A DNA stretch of 56,646 nucleotides from an uncultured Verrucomicrobiota bacterium (GTDB lineage Bacteria > Verrucomicrobiota > Kiritimatiellia > RFP12 > UBA3636): NCBI GenBank assembly GCA_949285835.1, contig CASEAR010000110.1:1-56646 (forward strand). Direction: 5' to 3'. The stretch's first letter is position 1, and every line of letters starts with the position of its first letter. Positions 10,687 to 55,838 of the stretch are shown in pieces. Under the pieces are notes generated by a model, which was not told where the DNA came from, did no database searches, and saw only the letters and a program-made list of their open reading frames with translations. Position numbers and translations under genes: made by a program.

Positions 10687-11706
10687 ATGTCGAAAGAAGA
10701 TAAAGACTCCAGAGCGGCGAAAAAAACCGTTAAAACATCCGCGGCACGTCAGGTTTCAGATGCTGCACGCGCTGCAGAAGCGGTAAAGGGGTCTGCCGCA
10801 AATACAAAAAAAACCTCTGCCGCCGTAAGCAGGACGGTAAAAAAAGTCCTTCGTTCGGCACCGCTCGGCCGCAAGAAGACCTCGTCGGAATTTTCCGCAC
10901 CTGAAGTGCCCCTGCAGATTACGACTGATCCGGAATACAAAATGGCGCCAGCCCGGAAAAAGACCGCAGACAAAGCCGCATCTGCAAAAAAATTGGCTGT
11001 AAAAGCGGCGGCCAAGGCTACGGTCAAAGCAAAAACACCAGACAGGGCGGAGTCAAAATCCGAACCCAAGTCCGCGGCCAAAACGGTATCCAAAGCAGCG
11101 CCTAAGTCCGCGGCCAAAACGGTATCCAAAGCAGCAGCTAAGTCCGCGGCCAAAACGGTATCCAAAGCAGCAGCTAAGTCTGCGGCCAAAACGGTATCCA
11201 GAGCAGCAGCTAAGTCTGCGGCCAAGGCGGAGGCAAAACCGGCGGCCAAAGTGGCAGATTACAAATCCCCTCGCAGGAAGTCTTCCTCTCCCGCGAGGAA
11301 CAACCGCGCTGTCCGCAAGAACAAAGACTTCACTGACAAACAGCTGGAAGAGTTCAGAAAAATGCTGCTTAAGATGCGCGAAGAATACACCTCTCAGGTG
11401 AAGGCGCTGTCGTCTTCCCTTCACAAGCAGGATGAAGAGAACACATCCGAGGACGGGTCAAACGAATTTGAAAGATCCACCAACCTTTGCAAGGCCGGTT
11501 CGGATCAGGGACTCGTAAGTAAAATCGACGCCGCCATCAAAGCCATAGCCGACGGCACATTCGGGCTTTGCGAGGAATGCGGAGAACTAATTGGGCTCAG
11601 CCGCTTGAAAGCTGTGCCGTACGCTACAACATGCATAAACTGCCAGAGTGGCCGCGACAGCGGAAAACAGTTCAGGCGAAACAAGGCCATGGACTTGTGG
11701 ATGTAG
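10687..11706 (+). CDS. dksA: DksA/TraR C4 zinc-finger protein with long Lys/Ala-rich N-terminal extension
   Basis: GTFGLCEECGELIGLSRLKAVPYATTCINC; coiled-coil region; directly upstream of lspA. Confidence 0.85.
   Translation: MSKEDKDSRAAKKTVKTSAARQVSDAARAAEAVKGSAANTKKTSAAVSRTVKKVLRSAPLGRKKTSSEFSAPEVPLQITTDPEYKMAPARKKTADKAASAKKLAVKAAAKATVKAKTPDRAESKSEPKSAAKTVSKAAPKSAAKTVSKAAAKSAAKTVSKAAAKSAAKTVSRAAAKSAAKAEAKPAAKVADYKSPRRKSSSPARNNRAVRKNKDFTDKQLEEFRKMLLKMREEYTSQVKALSSSLHKQDEENTSEDGSNEFERSTNLCKAGSDQGLVSKIDAAIKAIADGTFGLCEECGELIGLSRLKAVPYATTCINCQSGRDSGKQFRRNKAMDLWM
11068..11226 (+). repeat. Intragenic 36-bp tandem repeat (KSAAKTVSKAAx) x~4.4
   Basis: Units start at 11068, 11104, 11140, 11176 and 11212. 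Confidence 0.9.
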
Positions 11707-21452: not shown

Positions 21453-22055
21453 ATGAACAAAAAAAACATACTTCCAATGTCAACCGCTCTGGTGATGTCT
21501 GTGCTTGCTGTGTCATGCGCATGCACCAAATCCGAACAGCTCGTTGAATGCGGTTCAGGAACCGTTACAACGGCAAACAGCGCACAAAAAATCGCTGAGC
21601 CCAAGGCCGAGGTGAAGACCACGGTGAAGGCCGAGGCCAAAGCTGAAGCGAAAGCTGAGCCCAAAGCCGAGGCAAAAGCCAAAGTAAAAGAAGAGCCCAA
21701 AGCTGAAGCAAAAGCCGAAGTAAAGGCAGAGGCAAAGGAAAAGGCGAAAGCTGAACCCAAAGCTGAAGCAAAAGCTGAGGTGAAGGCTGAACCCAAAACT
21801 GAAGCAAAGGCCGAGGTGAAGGCAGAGCCCAAAGCTGAAGCAAAGGCCGAGGTGAAGGCTGAAGCAAAAGCAGACCCTAAGGCCGAGGTGAAGGCTGAGC
21901 CCAAAGCTGAAGCAAAGGCCGAGGTAAAGGAAGAAGCAAAGGCTGAGCCCAAAGCCGAAGCGAAGGCTGAAGTAAAGGAAGAGGCAAAGGCTGAACCCGA
22001 AGCCGAAGCGGAAGCAGAGGCCAAAGAAGAGGCAAAGGCTCCTGCACAAAACTAA
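21453..22055 (+). CDS. Putative lipoprotein made almost entirely of KAE(A/P/V) low-complexity repeats
   Basis: AAGGA RBS, signal peptide with LAVSC lipobox-like motif, then about 150 aa of KAEPKAEAKAEV-type repeats. Confidence 0.7.
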   Translation: MNKKNILPMSTALVMSVLAVSCACTKSEQLVECGSGTVTTANSAQKIAEPKAEVKTTVKAEAKAEAKAEPKAEAKAKVKEEPKAEAKAEVKAEAKEKAKAEPKAEAKAEVKAEPKTEAKAEVKAEPKAEAKAEVKAEAKADPKAEVKAEPKAEAKAEVKEEAKAEPKAEAKAEVKEEAKAEPEAEAEAEAKEEAKAPAQN

Positions 22056-46043: not shown

Positions 46044-49000
46044 ATGAACAAGCAAAGCACTGTTGATTTCTTCAGGAACCCCGATGCGGGAGCGCGGGGC
46101 GCTCCGTTCTGGGCGTGGAACTCGGTAATCACTCCGGAGGAGGCCAGACGCCAGATCGAAGTCATGAAAGAAATGGGGTTCGGCGGATTTTTCATGCATT
46201 CACGCGTCGGGATGGACGTTCCATACCTCAAAGAAGAATGGTTCGACGTAGTCAAAGCTTCCATCGAAGCCGCAAAAGCCAACGGAATGAACGCGTGGCT
46301 CTACGACGAAGACCGGTGGCCCAGCGGCAGTGCAGGAGGACTGGTTACGCGCCCCAATCCGGAATTCCGCTCCAGAAGCATCGATTTTGAACTCGCCCCG
46401 TTCGGCGGAAATGAAGGCGAAACCCTCGCCGTCTTCGCAGTGAAGCCTTTTGACGGCGGCCCCGGCAGCGCGGTGACGGCGGAAGAACGCGACCCGCGGA
46501 AAGTTTTTCCCGGCGGTATAGCCTCCTTCCGCAGACTGCCCGGGAACAAAAATGCGGAGCTACAGACGGGGGAATACGCCGTGAGATTTTTCGTGCACGT
46601 CAGCGAGCCTGACTCCTGGTACAACAACGGCACATACGTAGACACCCTCAGCGTCGACGCAGTGTCCCGCTTCGTGGAAATTACGCACGAAGCGTACAAA
46701 AGGGAAACGGGCGGCGAATTCGGGAAAACTGTCCCTGGAATCTTCTCCGACGAACCCAATATGCCCAATTTTGCATGGACCGGCGAATTCCCGAGAATAT
46801 TCAGAATGATGCACGGATATGACGTGCTGGATAAACTCCCGGAAATCATGTTTCCGGTGCACGGCCGGACGTTTGTAAAAAGCAGGTACGATTTCAAAAA
46901 GACCGCCGCGCATATGTTCGTGACCGCGTTTGCCAAAACGATAGGCGACTGGTGCAGCCGCAACGGCCTGTTCTTCACCGGACATGTCCTCAGTGAAGAC
47001 ACTCTTATGGCTCAGACAATCTGCGCCGGCTCTGCAATGCAGTTCTACGAGTACATGAGCCTGCCCGGAATCGACCTTCTCACGGAATGCTGGAACATTT
47101 TCGGCACAGCCAAACAATGCGTCTCCGCTGCGCGGCAGTTCGGCCGGCGCAGAAGGCTCTCCGAAACATACGGATGCACAGGGTGGGACTTCCCGTTTGA
47201 AGGGCATAAGGCGCTGGGCGACTGGCAGCTTGCTCTCGGCATCAATCTGCGCTGCCACCACCTCGCATGGTACTCTATGGAGGGTGAAAACAAGCGGGAT
47301 TACCCGGCAAGCATCAACTTCCAGTCCCCGTGGTGGCGGAAATACCGCTTCGTGGAAGACTACTACGCCAGACTCGGGGCGGTACTCGACAGCGGCGCCG
47401 AGGTGTCCGACATCCTCGTCATACATCCCGTTGAATCCATGTGGGGCATCTTCTCTGGCACGGATTCCGCCGCCGTATCAAAACTTGAAGATGAATTCGT
47501 CGCAATACGCAATGAGCTCCTCGGCAGCCATCTCGAATTCGACTACGGCGACGAGGAGATCATGTCGCGCCACGCACAGGTTCTCAAAAACGGAACGCTC
47601 CGCGTGGGCGAATCGAAGTACAAGGCGGTTGTCGTCCCGGAACTGCTGACCATAAGAGCGTCCACGCTCAAGCTGCTTGCTGATTTCGCTTCGGCCGGAG
47701 GGCTTGTGATATCCATCGGGGAACCGCCCGCAAGAGTCGACGCAGAAGAAACCGGAGAGGCCGCGGAAGTGTTCGCCGGCTTCAAGCACAGCTCCGGCAT
47801 CTCAGGCATATGCCCGATGCTCGAGCACATCAGGCGCGTTTCCGTGAGGAGCGGCGGCTCGGAAATCCGGCAGGCTCTATGCATGGTCAATGAGAGACCC
47901 GACGGACTGGCCCTGTTCGTCTGCAATACCTCGCAGGAATTCGCAGACGCCAGATCTCAGATGAATTATCCCAAAGTCCGCTTCCGCAGAGACGAATTCC
48001 CGCAGGCCGAAATCTCCGTCAAGTATGGCGTCCGCGAAGCCTTCGTATACGAGTTTGACGCCATGACGGGCAGCATACTCACCGTAGACTCCTCATACGA
48101 CCCCGAATCGGCTCTCTGCACTTTCCGCACGTCCCTCGGGCGCTTGGCCTCGCGCCTTTTCTTCCTGACTTCCGAAAAAATCCCGGACGCCGTGACACGC
48201 CCCCCCTCAGGCCCGTCCGGCGCAGCAGTGCCGCTGCCGTGCGATTCCATGCCCGTGTCCATGGATGAAGACAACGTGATAGTTCTCGATCATGCGGAAT
48301 CTTTCGAAATAAACCACATCCCCGGAGACGCGTCTGGCGAGTTCGTGCTCCGCATAGACGACAGACTGAGAAAAACCATCGGAATGATGCCGCACGGAGG
48401 CCACATGTGCCAGCCGTGGGTCACGCGGAACGAGCCGGACGGACCATCCGCTGAATTTTCCGTAAAGTTCGCATTCGAATGCGCGGAACGCCCCGTTTCG
48501 GACTGCTTTCTCGCGTATGAAATGAGCAATTCCGCCGAAGCGTTCGTGAACGGGACAAAGGTCTCCGGGAACCGCGCCGGATTCTGGGTGGACCCCTGCC
48601 TCGCCAAATTCACAATCCCGGCAGGAATCATAAGAACCGGCCGCAATGAAGTGGTCATCAAAGGAACTTACACAAAACGCAGCACAGGACTGGAAGCTTG
48701 CTTCGTGTGCGGCAAATTCGGAGTCGACGCGCAGGGGGCGATGTGTTCCGCCCCTGCGGCGCTGTCCGCCGGAGACTGGACTTCGCAGGGGCTCCCCAAC
48801 TACACCGGCAATCTCTCATACGAGATTCAGATTCCGGACGGGGCAGTCTCTGGAGCATCCCGCGTATTCGTCAGAATACCGAAATGGAATGGCGCGGCGC
48901 TGGACGTGTCCGTCAACGGAAATACGCCGGTTATGCTCCCATGGCCGCCGTATGAAACTGAGATAACGAAGTTCCTCGCGCAGCACGATAACGTTCTGCG

Positions 49001-49169
49001 AATCACAGTCTACGGCAACAGAAGAAACGCCATGGGCCCGTTTTACTACAAAAACACGGCTGAAACCGCATGGTTCGGCTCATGGCAGCTCCGGGACCAC
49101 CAGACGTCCGAACGCGAACTGGTCGAAATGGGACTTCTGGCGCCCGTTGAAATCGCTGCCGGCAAATAG
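46044..49169 (+). CDS. Large glycoside hydrolase, GH106 (alpha-L-rhamnosidase-like)
   Basis: APFWAWN, GFGGFFMHSRVG, WLYDEDRWPSG, GIFSDEP, PGIDLL, LSETYGCTGW, KRDYPAS. Confidence 0.75.
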   Translation: MNKQSTVDFFRNPDAGARGAPFWAWNSVITPEEARRQIEVMKEMGFGGFFMHSRVGMDVPYLKEEWFDVVKASIEAAKANGMNAWLYDEDRWPSGSAGGLVTRPNPEFRSRSIDFELAPFGGNEGETLAVFAVKPFDGGPGSAVTAEERDPRKVFPGGIASFRRLPGNKNAELQTGEYAVRFFVHVSEPDSWYNNGTYVDTLSVDAVSRFVEITHEAYKRETGGEFGKTVPGIFSDEPNMPNFAWTGEFPRIFRMMHGYDVLDKLPEIMFPVHGRTFVKSRYDFKKTAAHMFVTAFAKTIGDWCSRNGLFFTGHVLSEDTLMAQTICAGSAMQFYEYMSLPGIDLLTECWNIFGTAKQCVSAARQFGRRRRLSETYGCTGWDFPFEGHKALGDWQLALGINLRCHHLAWYSMEGENKRDYPASINFQSPWWRKYRFVEDYYARLGAVLDSGAEVSDILVIHPVESMWGIFSGTDSAAVSKLEDEFVAIRNELLGSHLEFDYGDEEIMSRHAQVLKNGTLRVGESKYKAVVVPELLTIRASTLKLLADFASAGGLVISIGEPPARVDAEETGEAAEVFAGFKHSSGISGICPMLEHIRRVSVRSGGSEIRQALCMVNERPDGLALFVCNTSQEFADARSQMNYPKVRFRRDEFPQAEISVKYGVREAFVYEFDAMTGSILTVDSSYDPESALCTFRTSLGRLASRLFFLTSEKIPDAVTRPPSGPSGAAVPLPCDSMPVSMDEDNVIVLDHAESFEINHIPGDASGEFVLRIDDRLRKTIGMMPHGGHMCQPWVTRNEPDGPSAEFSVKFAFECAERPVSDCFLAYEMSNSAEAFVNGTKVSGNRAGFWVDPCLAKFTIPAGIIRTGRNEVVIKGTYTKRSTGLEACFVCGKFGVDAQGAMCSAPAALSAGDWTSQGLPNYTGNLSYEIQIPDGAVSGASRVFVRIPKWNGAALDVSVNGNTPVMLPWPPYETEITKFLAQHDNVLRITVYGNRRNAMGPFYYKNTAETAWFGSWQLRDHQTSERELVEMGLLAPVEIAAGK

Positions 49170-49174
49170 CGTCT

Positions 49175-49655
49175 GATCCGTGCCCCGCGTGCACGCGAGG
49201 TAGAACACCGCAGCGTCTGCACAAATGCGGCGCGCGATTCCTGCGCGCTCGCGCGCGCGTAGAAAAACCGAGAGCAGACAACGCGCGTGCCACTGCCTTG
49301 GATTCCTGCGCGCTCGCGCGCGCGTAGAAAAACCTCAGCCGCCCAGCCGCATTGCGCTTCCTGCTTCCCGTGCGCACGCATACACGCAGGAGGGAACCGC
49401 CCTACTATGATGCCGCGGGCGCACATGCAATGTCCGTGCTCACGTGTGCGCGCGTTGAAAAGCAAGTTGTAAGAGCAGAAGTTGCTTCAGCAGGAAGCCA
49501 GTGCGCCCACATACGCGCGAATGGGCACCTAGCGCAGTCGTAGCCTCCTCCGGAAGAATATAGGCCAGTGCACCCACATACGCGCGAGGAAGAACACGGC
49601 GTCGACGTGAATAAAGCCATGGATGCGATAGGCCAGTGCGCCCACATGCGCGCAC
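49175..49655. repeat. Degenerate regularly interspaced repeat array (CRISPR-like, 8 units, ~65-bp period, no cas genes in window)
   Basis: Identical 34-mers at 49236 and 49301; near-identical GCCAGTGC(G/A)CCCACAT(A/G)CGCGC at 49497, 49564 and 49632; related units at 49175, 49363 and 49430. Confidence 0.6.
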
Positions 49656-49714
49656 TCTCTCTTCCTGCGCCATGCGCGAGGGACTCGGGAAATTCCGCAA
49701 ATTCCCGGCAGGCG

Positions 49715-51604
49715 TCATTCCGACCCGTGTTCCGGACGGCGCCTGAGCAAAGACGCCGCATGGCCTACAACAAACAAAGAGCTGCAATTGTGGAGTACCG
49801 CCCCGGAAACCGGCCCCAGCACACCGGCTGCGGCAAGCGTAATGGAGACGGCGTTTATGAAGATCGAAAAGACTATGTTCAACCTTATGTTGCGCAGCGT
49901 GTCTCTGGTCATCGACACAAGAAACGGTATCATGTGAAGATTATCATGCATCAGCACAATATCGGCGGCTCCGACCGAAACGTCGCTGCCGCGGCCGCCC
50001 ATCGCCACCCCCACATCTGCCGTCTCCAGAGCAACTGCGTCGTTCACCCCGTCGCCTACCATCGCAACCGTCCCGTAACGCACCGCCAGATCCACCACAG
50101 CCCGGGCCTTGTCCGCGGGAAGCAATTCCGCACGAACCTCGTCCGCCCCGGCTGCTTCCGCCGCAACACCCGCCGCCGCCGGATTGTCTCCAGTAAGCAG
50201 CGCAATGTGTGAAACGCCGCTCCTGTGGAGCCGGCTCACGACGTCGCGGCTTTCCTTGCGGAGCATATCGCTGAGAATTATTCTGCCCGCATACCTGCCG
50301 CCCGATGAAACGTACACGACCGTCCTGCCGGAAGCCATGTCCAAATCCGCCGCGGCAGTCTCTGCCTCCCCTATTTTGACGCCGTTCTCCTCAAGCCATC
50401 CGCGCGAACCTGCCAATACGCGCTCACCGCACACAGACGCCTCCACCCCGCGCCCGTGATGCATCCTGAAACACGAAGACTCCGGCACGCCGTCCCTGAC
50501 GCCGGAAAAGATCGCCCTCCCTATGGGATGCTCCGAACCGCGCTCCGCCGCGGCCGCCAAGCGCAGCACTCCGTCCGCGTCAAAAGGCTCCGACGCCGCC
50601 ACTTTTTCCACCACCGGATGCCCATACGTCAGCGTCCCCGTTTTATCAAACGCCATTGCCCGCACCTTGCCCATCGTTTCCAGCGCCTCTCCGGACTTAA
50701 CCAGCACCCCGTTCCTGCTCAGCACCGCCATGCACGCTCCGGCCGCAGTCGGAGCCGCCAATGCAAAAGCACACGGACAGAACACAATGAGAATCGTAAC
50801 GCCGCGCACAATGTCCCCGGAAGCAAGCCATACGCACAGCGCCGCAAAAAATGCGCCAACTATCAAATATGTGGCGCATTTATCCGCAAGCCTGACAACC
50901 GGAGCTCTGGCGTCGTGCGCCTCGCGCATCATTTTTAAAATCCGGTCGAAAGTACTGTCCCCGGAGTCCGACTCCGACACCACATCCACCGTGCCGTACG
51001 TATTCACGGTTCCGGATGTCACCCTGTCTCCCGCCTTTTTTTCCACAGGTACGGATTCACCAGTCATAAGCGATTCGTCCACCGCAGTAAACCCGGACAA
51101 AACAAGACCGTCAACCGGCACCGACCCGCCCGGCCTTATGCGAACGACATCCCCGCGCCTGATCTGCGAAACCGGGACTTCCTTTTCCTCTCCGTCCTTC
51201 ACTACTGACGCGGACGACGGCGCCATTCTGGACAGGCTGTCTATGCCGTCCCGCGCCTTTTTCAGCGTGCGCGTCTCAAACAGTTCCCCGAGCGCCATTA
51301 AAAACGCAACTTCTCCCGCCGCAAATATTTCACCAATGCATACCGACGCCGTCATCGCCACGCTTACAAGCAGTCCCGCGCGAATGCTGCCCGCAGAAAT
51401 AAGTTTCCTAAGCGCATAAACCACTATTGGCACCCCGCACAATATAACCGAAATCCATGCCGGATCCGGATAAGAAACGGCGTCTGAAACCCCATGCCCC
51501 CGGCCAATGGCAAAACTCCACGCCAACGCAGGCCCCGAGATCAAAACCGACCACAACAGCCTGCCGCCGCAAAAAAACCGCGAGAAACGCATATTTGCCT
51601 CCAT
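49715..51604 (-). CDS. Heavy-metal translocating P1B-type ATPase
   Basis: TGES, FCPCA, FDKTGTLT, SEHP, LTGDN, MVGDGVND; no N-terminal CxxC HMA domain. Confidence 0.93.
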   Translation of the reverse strand: MEANMRFSRFFCGGRLLWSVLISGPALAWSFAIGRGHGVSDAVSYPDPAWISVILCGVPIVVYALRKLISAGSIRAGLLVSVAMTASVCIGEIFAAGEVAFLMALGELFETRTLKKARDGIDSLSRMAPSSASVVKDGEEKEVPVSQIRRGDVVRIRPGGSVPVDGLVLSGFTAVDESLMTGESVPVEKKAGDRVTSGTVNTYGTVDVVSESDSGDSTFDRILKMMREAHDARAPVVRLADKCATYLIVGAFFAALCVWLASGDIVRGVTILIVFCPCAFALAAPTAAGACMAVLSRNGVLVKSGEALETMGKVRAMAFDKTGTLTYGHPVVEKVAASEPFDADGVLRLAAAAERGSEHPIGRAIFSGVRDGVPESSCFRMHHGRGVEASVCGERVLAGSRGWLEENGVKIGEAETAAADLDMASGRTVVYVSSGGRYAGRIILSDMLRKESRDVVSRLHRSGVSHIALLTGDNPAAAGVAAEAAGADEVRAELLPADKARAVVDLAVRYGTVAMVGDGVNDAVALETADVGVAMGGRGSDVSVGAADIVLMHDNLHMIPFLVSMTRDTLRNIRLNIVFSIFINAVSITLAAAGVLGPVSGAVLHNCSSLFVVGHAASLLRRRPEHGSE

Positions 51605-53962: not shown

Positions 53963-54434
53963 ATCCGCTCCCGTACCAACCTGTTTGTTAACTCATTTCA
54001 TCCACATGAGTTTGACACACAACATCATAAAACGCAATCCGCATAATTCTGACGGCCCGCGCAGCCGAGGCCAGCGCAAACGCCCGGCCGCATATTCCAT
54101 GCAAAAAAAGATGATACCTGACCGGGGAATAGTTGCATAACACGTTTGTTTCAAAAATGTTACACCAAAAAAACATTAAACCGCATCCAGTTCCTGACCG
54201 CAGCCGTTGAAGATGCTTGACGCATAAAAACTGTGCCTAAGTTAAGGAAAGACGCTGTAAATACGGGCTCCGGACAAGAAAGCGGCGGCGGCGGCACAGC
54301 CTGTTAACAACCTGTTAACAAACTCAAGATTCTTTTCGCTTGCGTGTTTTCTTCCGTTATGGGAACATCGCCCGTCGGAATGGAGGGGAAGAGATGTTTC
54401 TGCACTTTTCACGCTGTGCGGGAGCTTGCGAGAT

Positions 54435-55838
54435 ATGGAAACGAATTTTGAGGCCCATGCCGGCGAGACATGGACAAGGGCATGCGGGATTGTCAAAGAA
54501 AAACTCGGAGAAGATAACTTTTCCAGGCTCATCGAGCCAATGGTTCCGGTTTCTTTCACCGACGGCATCCTCGTCATGCAGGTTGACAATGATTTTCTTA
54601 AAGCTTGGATAACGGAAAGTTATCTGGGACTGATACGCGACGCGGTGAGGCTTGCTTCCGGAAATTCCTTCGCCGAAGTGAACCTCACCGTTAGTAAGGA
54701 GCAGACTCCCCTGCCGGACGCCGGAATGCACGATCCGGCTCCGCACGAATCACACGCAGCAGAATACAGACCCTCGCGAAAATCCGCCCCCGGGGTTCCG
54801 CTGAACCCGGACTACACATTTGCAAACTTTGTAGTCGGACCGTCCAACAGTTTCGCGGAGGCTGCCGCGCGCGGGGTGGCGAAGAATCCCGGCACCGCGT
54901 ACAACCCGCTTTTCATATACGGGGAGACCGGCTTGGGGAAGACCCACATAATGCAGGCAATCGGCCGCGAGGCGATAAGCAGAAATCCGCGCTTGGTGGT
55001 CTGCTACACCTCGTCCGAAGATCTTCTTAACAACTATCTCGAGTCCCTGCGCAACAACACCACGTCTGAATTCAGGAAACGCTACAGAAATATCGACATA
55101 CTGCTCATCGACGATATACACTTCATGGCCAACAAAAAGGCCCTTCAGGAAGAGTTCTTCCACACGTTCAATACGCTTCAGAACAATCAGAAGCAGATTG
55201 TAATGACGAGCGACAGATCCCTGAACGACATAGAAGGCCTGGAGGAGCGCCTTGTCTCGCGCTTCCAACAGGGACTGATCACATCCATAGAGCGTCCGGA
55301 TTTCGAAACGCGGCTGGCCATCCTCAAGAACAAGCAGAAAAATGCGGTAACGAAAATTCCCGACAACATCCTCTACTTCATCGCCGAGAATATAACTTCC
55401 AACGTTCGGAAACTCGAGGGGGCGCTGACCAGAGTGCAGGTTCACGCGTCCATGATAACAAAATGCGAGCCGACTATCGACGATGTCCGCAGCCTGCTGC
55501 GGGACACTCTAGAACACGAGATGCAGCCGGATCTTACTTTCCATGAGATACAGAGAACCGTAGCCTCGCAGTACGGATTGACCATGTCGGACATGACCAG
55601 CACCGTACGCTCCCAGAACATAGCCTTCCCGCGGCAGGTGGCCATGTTCCTGTGCCGCAAGCTCACGAAGGCCTCTCTCCCGGAGATAGCCGGCGCATTT
55701 GAGAAAACGCACGCCACAATACTGCATGCGTGCAAAGCCGTAATGGACCGCATGTCCACGGATCACGATCAAATCCTGCGCATTGAAACAATCGTGCGCA
55801 AACTTGGCCGCGATCCGGAAACAACCATACGGTCGTGA
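54435..55838 (+). CDS. dnaA: Chromosomal replication initiator DnaA
   Basis: LNPDYTFANFVVGPSN, YNPLFIYGETGLGKTH, LLIDDIHF, QEEFFHTFN, NVRKLEGAL, PRQVAMFL. Confidence 0.97.
   Translation: METNFEAHAGETWTRACGIVKEKLGEDNFSRLIEPMVPVSFTDGILVMQVDNDFLKAWITESYLGLIRDAVRLASGNSFAEVNLTVSKEQTPLPDAGMHDPAPHESHAAEYRPSRKSAPGVPLNPDYTFANFVVGPSNSFAEAAARGVAKNPGTAYNPLFIYGETGLGKTHIMQAIGREAISRNPRLVVCYTSSEDLLNNYLESLRNNTTSEFRKRYRNIDILLIDDIHFMANKKALQEEFFHTFNTLQNNQKQIVMTSDRSLNDIEGLEERLVSRFQQGLITSIERPDFETRLAILKNKQKNAVTKIPDNILYFIAENITSNVRKLEGALTRVQVHASMITKCEPTIDDVRSLLRDTLEHEMQPDLTFHEIQRTVASQYGLTMSDMTSTVRSQNIAFPRQVAMFLCRKLTKASLPEIAGAFEKTHATILHACKAVMDRMSTDHDQILRIETIVRKLGRDPETTIRS

Follow-up and report, generated by a model that had tools for sequence, protein, structure and literature searches.

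A probable orphan CRISPR array, partly decayed and loaded with self and prophage DNA, in an uncultured Verrucomicrobiota bacterium

What kind of element is the series of eight related but unequal units found at positions 49175-49665 of contig CASEAR010000110.1, from an uncultured Verrucomicrobiota bacterium of the Kiritimatiellia (GenBank assembly GCA_949285835.1)? This contig, 56,646 nucleotides (nt) long, was analysed in full and is referred to here as the window. It is contig C110 of a 2.67-Mb draft genome in 143 contigs that is 91% complete; the codes C3-C139 denote contigs of the same genome. A preliminary description had read the region either as a long-decayed orphan CRISPR array or as some other guide array whose repeats conserve structure instead of sequence. 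Our analysis favours the first reading in a modified form: the locus is probably an orphan CRISPR array of type-I style (class 1, with type I-C-like geometry), partly decayed and loaded with self and prophage DNA. The repeats are numbered R1-R8 and the spacers S1-S7, and the borders of the repeats are approximate (±3 nt for R1).

The basic geometry was readily verified. Eight related units, with repeats of about 33 nt each, recur on the plus strand at a spacing of 61-68 base pairs (bp). Their (G/C)TGC cores start at 49180, 49241, 49306, 49370, 49436, 49501, 49568 and 49636, giving core-to-core spacings of 61, 65, 64, 66, 65, 67 and 68 bp, as the preliminary description had reported. The repeats occupy 49175-49205 (R1), 49236-49269 (R2), 49301-49332 (R3), 49367-49398 (R4), 49432-49464 (R5), 49493-49528 (R6), 49560-49595 (R7) and 49628-49663 (R8, the terminal repeat). 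Between them lie the spacers, at 49206-49235 (S1), 49270-49300 (S2), 49333-49366 (S3), 49399-49431 (S4), 49465-49492 (S5), 49529-49559 (S6) and 49596-49627 (S7). The mean pairwise alignment score of the eight repeats was 9.0, compared with 3.37 ± 0.29 in 300 shuffles (maximum 4.29), and a register scan confined the similarity to the repeat part of the unit. The seven spacers scored 2.76, which is background, so that the intervals, described earlier as mostly unrelated, are mutually unrelated; the string AGAGCAGA does occur in S2 and S5 alike. A decayed 65-bp minisatellite, the scenario that the earlier text had named as its own refutation, was rejected because only the repeats align and the spacers do not; Tandem Repeats Finder returned 0 rows.

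The repeats themselves are related to very different degrees. R2 and R3 are one identical 34-mer (49236-49269 equals 49301-49334), of which the genome holds only these two copies at three or fewer mismatches. R6, R7 and R8 have a 26-nt block in common (starting at 49493, 49560 and 49628) with 85-92% identity; with R7 as the reference copy, R6 is 85% identical over the shared block and the first 26 nt of R8 are 92% alike, the 3′ end of R8 being degenerate and CT-rich. From R1/R2 to R7/R8, identity between adjacent repeats was 59, 89, 43, 47, 45, 71 and 66% (38-40 aligned columns). Near-identity, as CRISPR arrays require of their repeats, was found only between R2 and R3 (34/34). The proposal that the repeats diverge progressively along the array held only roughly, since R1 and R7, at opposite ends, are 79% alike over 28 nt. 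A profile built from the eight units recovered in the genome only those eight at E < 0.01 (among them R1 at E = 1.1e-4, R4 at 4.1e-4, R5 at 6.9e-5, R6 at 2.9e-5 and R7 at 3.5e-6), the next match having E = 0.013. Against 140 genomes of the order the profile found no array, only single weak hits (E = 0.004-0.009) in seven genomes; these were mostly apparent coding sequence, and two (L053 and L055) lay in intergenic alternating purine-pyrimidine tracts.

In all eight units the core is an alternating purine-pyrimidine tract, GC-rich as seen in R1. Over 19 nt the cores were 74.6% identical, compared with 58 ± 4% in a null that keeps both the purine/pyrimidine pattern and the composition, and none of 2000 draws from this null reached the observed value. 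Differences within the core were mostly transitions (71, to 29 transversions), because purine-pyrimidine alternation forces mismatches to be transitions. A hairpin was predicted in 8/8 repeats, with a folding z-score below -2 in 4/8, the identical R2 and R3 included. The idea that structure is conserved in place of sequence was not borne out: in the shared 5-bp stem, 0/5 pairs had changed on both sides, and when the 3′ arm of the stem was slid by ±2 columns, 74-82% of the cells still paired because the core is an alternating tract. The tails of the repeats, 8-9 nt long, are purine-rich and variable (GTAGAAAAAC, GGAAGAAC; GGTAGAA in R1). CpG deamination was considered as a cause of quick repeat decay but had no genome-wide support, the observed/expected ratio being 1.23 for CpG and 1.0 for GCGC. 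Programs that depend on repeat identity miss the array, as had been anticipated: besides the empty Tandem Repeats Finder result, Rfam gave no match to its CRISPR direct-repeat (CRISPR-DR) models and only chance microRNA hits.

The evidence that carries the CRISPR reading comes from the spacers, which we searched against the bacterium's own genome with blastn-short and then in a more sensitive search with 70 shuffled-spacer controls. S7 matched 32/32 to C25:33428-33459 (E = 1e-10), on the sense strand of the bacterium's own L-rhamnose isomerase gene, rhaA (Pfam RhaA, E = 7.7e-177), about 52-83 nt past the ATG. S4 matched 29/33 to C40:3432-3464 on the plus strand, with a core (49404-49431) that is 27/28 identical to C40:3437-3464 (E = 6.2e-6), and S3 matched 30/34 to C40:2277-2310 on the minus strand, with a core of 24/25 (E = 3.8e-4). 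Both of these targets fall inside a single open reading frame (ORF) of 2157 amino acids on C40 that carries a Pfam LPD3 polyvalent-protein domain. Relatives of its N-terminal part, 62-66% identical, lie on five IMG/VR viral contigs, and because of these relatives we take the C40 gene, on sequence grounds, to be a prophage or mobile-element gene. S1 matched 27/30 (E = 0.024) to C90:50066-50095, in a gene resembling Zn-dependent alcohol dehydrogenases (Pfam ADH_N/ADH_zinc_N).

The sensitive search scored S1 at 34.2 bits, S3 at 38.2, S4 at 48.1 and S7 at 63.9, the maximum of the 70 shuffles being 32.2. S2, S5 (26.3 bits) and S6 (28.2 bits) remained at background, and no match to them was found in the own genome. 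As a further control we used the 13 spacers of a type II-C array in the same genome, of which one reached 34.2 bits and none exceeded it; S1 is for this reason counted as borderline. Own-genome protospacers were thus obtained for three of the seven spacers firmly (S3, S4 and S7) and for one at the borderline (S1). The ends of the protospacer matches coincide with the limits of repeat similarity, and no microhomology was seen there. Relative to the target genes the orientation is mixed, with S4 and S7 sense and S3 and S1 antisense. Outside the genome, the spacers had 0 hits in a phage collection and a single chance-level hit (E = 0.5) in a plasmid collection. No consistent protospacer-adjacent motif emerged: S4 has ACG and S7 AGT, and TTC stands before the S1 and S3 protospacers only when the motif is allowed to take in the first C of the match. 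Unrelated spacers, three firm protospacers out of seven and matches that end at the repeat borders together bear out the earlier view of the locus as an orphan array of CRISPR-type repeats and spacers.

These borders also bear on an explanation outside CRISPR altogether, that of a decayed 65-bp minisatellite or a cluster of hairpins, comparable to repetitive extragenic palindromic (REP) sequences or bacterial interspersed mosaic elements (BIME), lodged between convergent genes. The location suits such a cluster, right after a stop codon and between convergent genes, as do the hairpin-prone cores and the presence of other intergenic purine-pyrimidine-tract arrays in the genome. A terminator scan, moreover, picked out R8 alone, which together with its CT-rich tail scored as a terminator-like hairpin on the plus strand. 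None of this accounts for spacers of 28-34 nt that reproduce sequence from distant genes and whose ends fall at the edges of the repeats. The low scores among spacers (2.76, against 9.0 for the repeats) and the failure of Tandem Repeats Finder also speak against a minisatellite, a REP family would have copies scattered over the genome, whereas the repeat profile finds none, and independent public contigs, described below, argue against the protospacer matches being assembly artefacts. We therefore regard a non-CRISPR origin as very improbable.

The array fills the gap between two convergent genes, as had been described. Upstream lies a GH106 alpha-L-rhamnosidase-like gene on the plus strand (46044-49169, 1041 amino acids; Pfam PF17132, E = 4.4e-21), whose stop codon is 5 nt before R1, and downstream a P-type ATPase gene on the minus strand (49715-51604, 629 amino acids; Pfam E1-E2_ATPase 7e-46, Hydrolase 2.3e-30). 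The observation that there is no obvious leader also stands: the neighbouring stop codons are only 5 nt and about 50 nt away, and a leader consequently has no space. A promoter scan found no promoter-like site within or beside the array. The reported lack of cas genes was correct inside the window. In the neighbourhood from 38 to 56.6 kb no cas-like gene was seen; the region holds dnaA, sugar-degrading genes, a LacI regulator, an M24 peptidase, a pilin-like gene and the P-type ATPase. The lack did not extend to the genome, which carries a type II-C locus on another contig. The dnaA gene (Bac_DnaA, DnaA_N and DnaA_C domains) occupies 54426-55838 of the window, and because it is only about 4.8 kb from the array, the array locus is probably close to the replication origin.

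The type II-C locus, on C122 (L019:38-5599), looks complete, with a Cas9 of 1242 amino acids, Cas1, Cas2 and an identical 36-nt repeat that is unrelated to the repeats of the window array. Its array is split across two contig ends, those of C122 and C3 (7 and 8 repeats), and has a unit of about 65-66 bp and spacers of 29-30 nt (n = 13). The one Cas1 of the genome adjoins the Cas2 and Cas9 of this locus. Judged by length, the II-C integrase would not have written the matched spacers, because these are 32-36 nt long, compared with 29-30 nt in the II-C array. No type I or III cas gene turned up in the 91%-complete draft: Cas3_HD, Cas5d, Cas7 (PF05107), Cas4, RAMPs, Cas6e, Cas7e and Cas6 were not found, Cas8c not being among the families searched. 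A type I Cas3 was present in 8 of 30 relatives from the family, once beside an array with a 29-nt repeat and 32-nt spacers; because of these 8 genomes, the lineage can be said to carry class-1 systems.

Two further cas-less arrays were found in the same genome. At C91:3845-4202, between an iPGM gene and a LamG-domain gene, five exact 32-nt repeats and one degenerate copy alternate with spacers of 34-36 nt, and an AT-rich leader-like stretch lies to the right. Three of its five spacers match the own genome: one 36/36 to C134, one 33/35 to C71 and one 26/26 (29/35 overall) to C88, where the target is the spacer region between nrdD and nrdG. The exact C91 repeat had 0 hits in genomes of other species. 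At C136:4064-4470, a 33-nt repeat is present in three good copies with degenerate copies on either side; one spacer matches 35/35 to a giant ORF on C21. This array is preceded by two ORFs of unrecognised family (193 and 409 amino acids) and a gene for an RmrA-like HTH-M78 regulator. The window, C91 and C136 arrays have a unit length of 65-68 bp in common, with spacers of 30-36 nt (28-36 nt by approximate borders), and the 36-nt II-C repeat is unrelated to the repeats of any of them. No gene family is common to the neighbours of the three arrays, and Rfam gave no match for the C91 and C136 loci. Counting firm matches only, 7 of the 14 spacers of these three arrays derive from the own genome, compared with 0 of 13 in the II-C array.

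Three arrays with a common unit and unlike repeats suggest a different origin, a natural counterpart of so-called neo-CRISPR arrays. One promiscuous Cas1-Cas2, uncoupled from interference, would have integrated at several GC-rich, repeat-like sites that were not CRISPR arrays; each event would have duplicated about 32-34 nt of local sequence, seeding three leaderless arrays of mostly self DNA. The 65-68-bp unit shared by arrays whose repeats are not significantly alike is what such an enzyme would leave, and the lack of a leader or adjacent cas gene at any of the three arrays and the contrast between 7/14 and 0/13 own-genome spacers are in keeping with it. Duplication of a fixed length would fit R2-S2-R3 as well as C91 and C136. 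The window repeat, moreover, has no other copy in its genome and forms no array in the 140 genomes of the order, and the exact C91 repeat has no hit in genomes of other species. Set against this, an integrase with the right ruler is absent from the assembly, and the model predicts identical flanking copies, whereas unlike repeats lie on the two sides of S1, S3 and S4. No close relative offers an empty site that carries one copy of such a pre-repeat. On balance we judge the promiscuous integration unlikely, and the seeding of three arrays by it unlikely to the same degree.

A possible pseudo-repeat substrate for such an enzyme exists in the genome, in at least four intergenic arrays of purine-pyrimidine tracts at similar spacing. 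We observed many intergenic arrays of GC-rich alternating purine-pyrimidine (Z-DNA-prone) tracts spaced about 60-75 bp apart, each with its own degenerate repeat: on C15 (L047:3401-3666), C44 (L049:5158-5431) and C49 (L048:2855-3191), and further at C128:21749-21966, C126:31315-31550, C117:8450-8580, C139:4150-4420 and C18:3950-4100. In those on C15, C44, C49 and C128, 0 of 18 intervals rose above the shuffle maximum in own-genome matching, so that these arrays need not be related to the three described above; possible identities include older arrays and substrates for integration, among others. In G090, a relative from the order, an intergenic region of its contig C43 (L055:1201-1560) has similar tracts, CCTCGTGCGC(A/G)TACGC..., together with a repeated GATGTTGATAAC. 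Alternating purine-pyrimidine tracts may thus be a feature of the lineage and not peculiar to the source genome.

The public sequence record allowed us to compare strains. Eight public runs from two studies, none of them recorded as RNA, contain the stretch, and we compared the contigs, not the reads, of four of them. In run X1, the contigs that hold the array, at depth 11.4 and 10.1, fork at the 32-mer of S7, and the fork leads to contigs with the rhaA flanks (10.2 and 9.6); because the branching contigs are of equal depth, the array and rhaA belong to one genome. A contig of run X5, from the second study, covers 49342-49811, through S7, and one of run X3 covers 49303-49627. In the second study R4-R8 were unchanged except for three differences, at 49388, 49390 and 49658; all 3 between-study differences in 49342-49665 fall in repeats and 0 in spacers, a pattern that is not significant. 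Searches with the two flanking genes gave less: metagenome contigs searched with the GH106 C-terminus yielded only 39%-identical relatives and no conspecific locus, and genome contigs searched with the P-type ATPase only distant relatives.

Spacer content may differ between strains. Contigs of X1 and X2 run from 49249 straight on to 49317, with depth 0 over 49264-49310, an allele without one repeat and S2 (it skips 49250-49316, or 65 nt plus one CG); at the level of contigs this can be read as a gain or as a loss. The remaining repeat has (CG)4 instead of (CG)5, and because of this one missing CG we interpret the contig as a different allele, not as a collapsed assembly. The same CG-unit difference between alleles shows that the repeat cores slip like dinucleotide microsatellites, and such slippage may speed the divergence of the repeats. 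The description of the array as long decayed accordingly applies to part of it only: some units are young, because S7 matches its target at 32/32, R2 equals R3 and one unit is present or absent between public runs.

The neo-CRISPR model could be extended to a reading in which the species would record both the birth and the filling of arrays by an integrase uncoupled from interference. It would do so at three or more leaderless, cas-less sites whose GC-rich pseudo-repeats are unrelated but follow one ruler (repeat about 32-34 nt, spacer about 30-36 nt), each site having taken up fragments of the cell's housekeeping genes and of a resident prophage; some captures would be recent, because of the perfect matches and the unit that is polymorphic between strains. 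We consider this extension unlikely. If it were true, the enzyme would still be circulating in the population, as part of an unbinned type I module or as an integrase unlike recognised Cas1, and the purine-pyrimidine-tract arrays may be its substrate or older remains of the same process.

The perfect S7 match raises one more question, whether the array is at work as a guide or regulatory element. Its transcripts would then act on host genes via the spacers, and selection would keep the spacers matched while the repeats drift; a minus-strand S7 RNA, for instance, would be antisense to the rhaA mRNA in its 5′ coding region and tie the rhamnosidase gene to rhamnose catabolism. S7 is perfect (32/32) although its flanking repeats differ, the repeat core is better kept than the flanks, and all three between-study differences lie in repeats. 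The array also sits directly after the GH106 rhamnosidase-like gene, and S7 matches rhaA. Copying of S7 from a neighbouring rhamnose locus was considered but is not supported: in every relative in which both were found, among them a genome of only 10 contigs, the GH106 orthologue is on another contig than rhaA and not its neighbour, and proximity thus does not explain the link. The connection between the rhamnosidase gene and rhaA is suggestive, and it stands alone, because the C91 and C136 arrays show no functional link between neighbours and targets. Several observations run counter to a guide function. No effector or processing enzyme for the window repeats was found in the genome, nor was an anti-repeat copy found elsewhere in it; the stem holds 0 compensatory pairs; the spacer strands are mixed relative to the target genes; no promoter-like site lies in or beside the array; and the 3-of-3 pattern of single-nucleotide differences is not significant. 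We hold a working guide array to be highly unlikely, and antisense control of rhaA through S7 equally so.

We return to the reading that we favour, a type-I-style orphan CRISPR array. Its repeats, about 32-34 nt long, open with a short 5′ flank, continue into a GC-rich core able to form a stem and end in a purine-rich 3′ tail of 8-9 nt; the spacers measure about 30-34 nt. The enzyme that inserted them would have been an integrase of Cas1-Cas2 type whose ruler is about 33 nt, distinct from the II-C enzyme and without a gene in the assembly. The spacers come from the resident prophage-type gene (S3 and S4) and the bacterium's own chromosome (S7 from rhaA, S1 perhaps from the alcohol dehydrogenase gene). 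The prophage-derived spacers may have been taken from variants of the resident element, and the divergence of S3 and S4 is therefore no clock. Self-derived spacers would be tolerated because a matching effector does not exist, mutations have altered the majority of the repeats and a motif is missing from most protospacers. The array would be a mosaic of old, drifted units (R1, R4 and R5) and younger ones (R2-S2-R3 and R6-S6-R7-S7-R8); new spacers would therefore have entered at internal repeats, as is expected because the array is leaderless. The array is most likely an inert record at present, and any transcription of it may be limited to read-through from the flanking genes into their 3′ untranslated regions. 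The tolerance of self-derived spacers would match the known pattern in which self-targeting is tolerated after a system has been lost or has decayed.

Several points weigh against this reading. The negative results for cas genes come from a 91%-complete draft, and those for PF08798 and PF09344 are weak, an Escherichia coli control genome also having given no match. No leader, promoter-like site or cognate cas gene was found for the window array. The label type I-C depends on the repeat architecture and the 32-34/30-36-nt geometry, with the Rfam CRISPR-DR models giving no match, and the motif evidence is weak, TTC being found at only 2 of 4 window protospacers and nothing consistent at the three C91 protospacers. 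The repeats of the window, C91 and C136 are mutually unrelated, which one lost system does not explain. R3/R4, R4/R5 and R5/R6 are 43-47% identical, compared with 88% for S3 and S4 to their targets (88-100% over the matched spacers), and simple neutral decay after standard duplication fits this poorly unless mutation is quicker in the repeats or the targets' close variants supplied the spacers. Finally, the 5′ flank and tail of the repeats are near random while the 19-nt core stays 75% identical.

How the locus compares with known systems depends on which of its traits is considered. In type I-C arrays the repeat is 32 nt long, forms a GC-rich stem-loop and carries a 3′ ...ATTGAAAC tail, the spacers are 33-36 nt long and the motif is 5′-TTC. 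The window array resembles them in its unit of 64-68 bp (the first being 61 bp), its GC-rich stem-forming core and its purine-rich tails. It differs in that its repeats are not near-identical, it has no leader, S4 and S7 lack TTC, Cas5d, Cas7, Cas3 and Cas4 were not found in the genome and no Rfam CRISPR-DR model matched. Mini-CRISPRs of the CreA/CreR type consist of two repeats, are located within cas loci or next to them and match promoters only partially, in the manner of a seed. The window array likewise has degenerate repeats around a spacer with a match in the host genome, but its repeats number eight, it has no cas locus and its matches are full-length and fall within coding regions. 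With the II-C array of its own genome it shares a unit of about 65-66 bp, whereas its repeats differ from the identical 36-nt repeat of that array, whose spacers are 29-30 nt long with 0/13 self.

Orphan self-targeting arrays offer another comparison. According to two reviews (PMC6990116 and PMC8616872), self-targeting spacers accounted for 0.4% of the spacers in the 2010 survey of Stern et al. and were present in 18% of the genomes, and they accompany missing motifs, mutated adjacent repeats or missing cas genes. In the account given by the same sources, Lactobacillus acidophilus NCFM has lost its cas cassette and kept an array with six genome-targeting spacers (PMC6990116; PMC8616872). Measured against what these sources relate, the window array is likewise cas-less, with spacers from its own chromosome and prophage, mutated adjacent repeats and a weak or missing motif. 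It departs from the cases they describe in that about half of its spacers are self-derived (3-4 of 7, and 7 of 14 firmly over the three arrays, compared with 0.4% in the survey), repeat decay is much stronger and three arrays have unrelated repeats. It also has a perfect match to a housekeeping sugar gene, and a functional II-C system coexists with it, uninvolved. Off-target arrays made by Cas1-Cas2 in E. coli, termed neo-CRISPR arrays (Nivala, Shipman and Church 2018, as cited in 10.1101/148544), resemble the window, so far as that citation describes them, in their leaderless non-canonical sites, fixed-length duplication (R2 = R3, C91 and C136 here) and largely self spacers. On the same account, they differ in that the window array is natural and not a product of over-expression, no integrase with the right ruler was found in its genome and several of its units have unlike flanks. 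Tolerated self-targeting and cas loss are thus known phenomena, and the window case is unusual in its share of self spacers, in repeat decay beside perfect spacers and in three arrays that combine unrelated repeats with one ruler.

Some other repeats came up in the course of the analysis. At C37:4853-5120 (L063:1854-2121) a 37-nt spaced repeat with a GNRA-type hairpin (GCC-GAAA-GGC) occurs four times, the copies being 76-78 bp apart, and the series follows immediately on a promoter-like site (TTGCAA-17-TATAAT); two more copies lie at C77:11101-11138 and 11534-11571 (L064). The spacers of this repeat had no match in the own genome, and Rfam gave no match for the C37 and C77 loci. Within the window, the spaced-repeat scan brought up two stretches that are not arrays: coding tandem repeats at 21550-22050, rich in Lys, Ala, Glu and Pro (AEAKAEPKAE-type), and another short coding repeat at 11068-11225.

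For the biology of CRISPR, the locus would be a natural snapshot of adaptation without counter-selection, its effector lost or never present, and it bears on the question of what leads to system loss in the wake of autoimmunity. How new arrays arise may be approached through the three arrays, which combine unrelated repeats with a common ruler. All three escaped tools based on repeat identity and were recovered when candidate spacers were compared with the carrier's own genome, an inexpensive approach to metagenome-assembled genomes whose arrays are decayed or atypical. The rhamnosidase gene next to the perfect rhaA spacer, finally, provides a route to asking whether relic spacers regulate anything.

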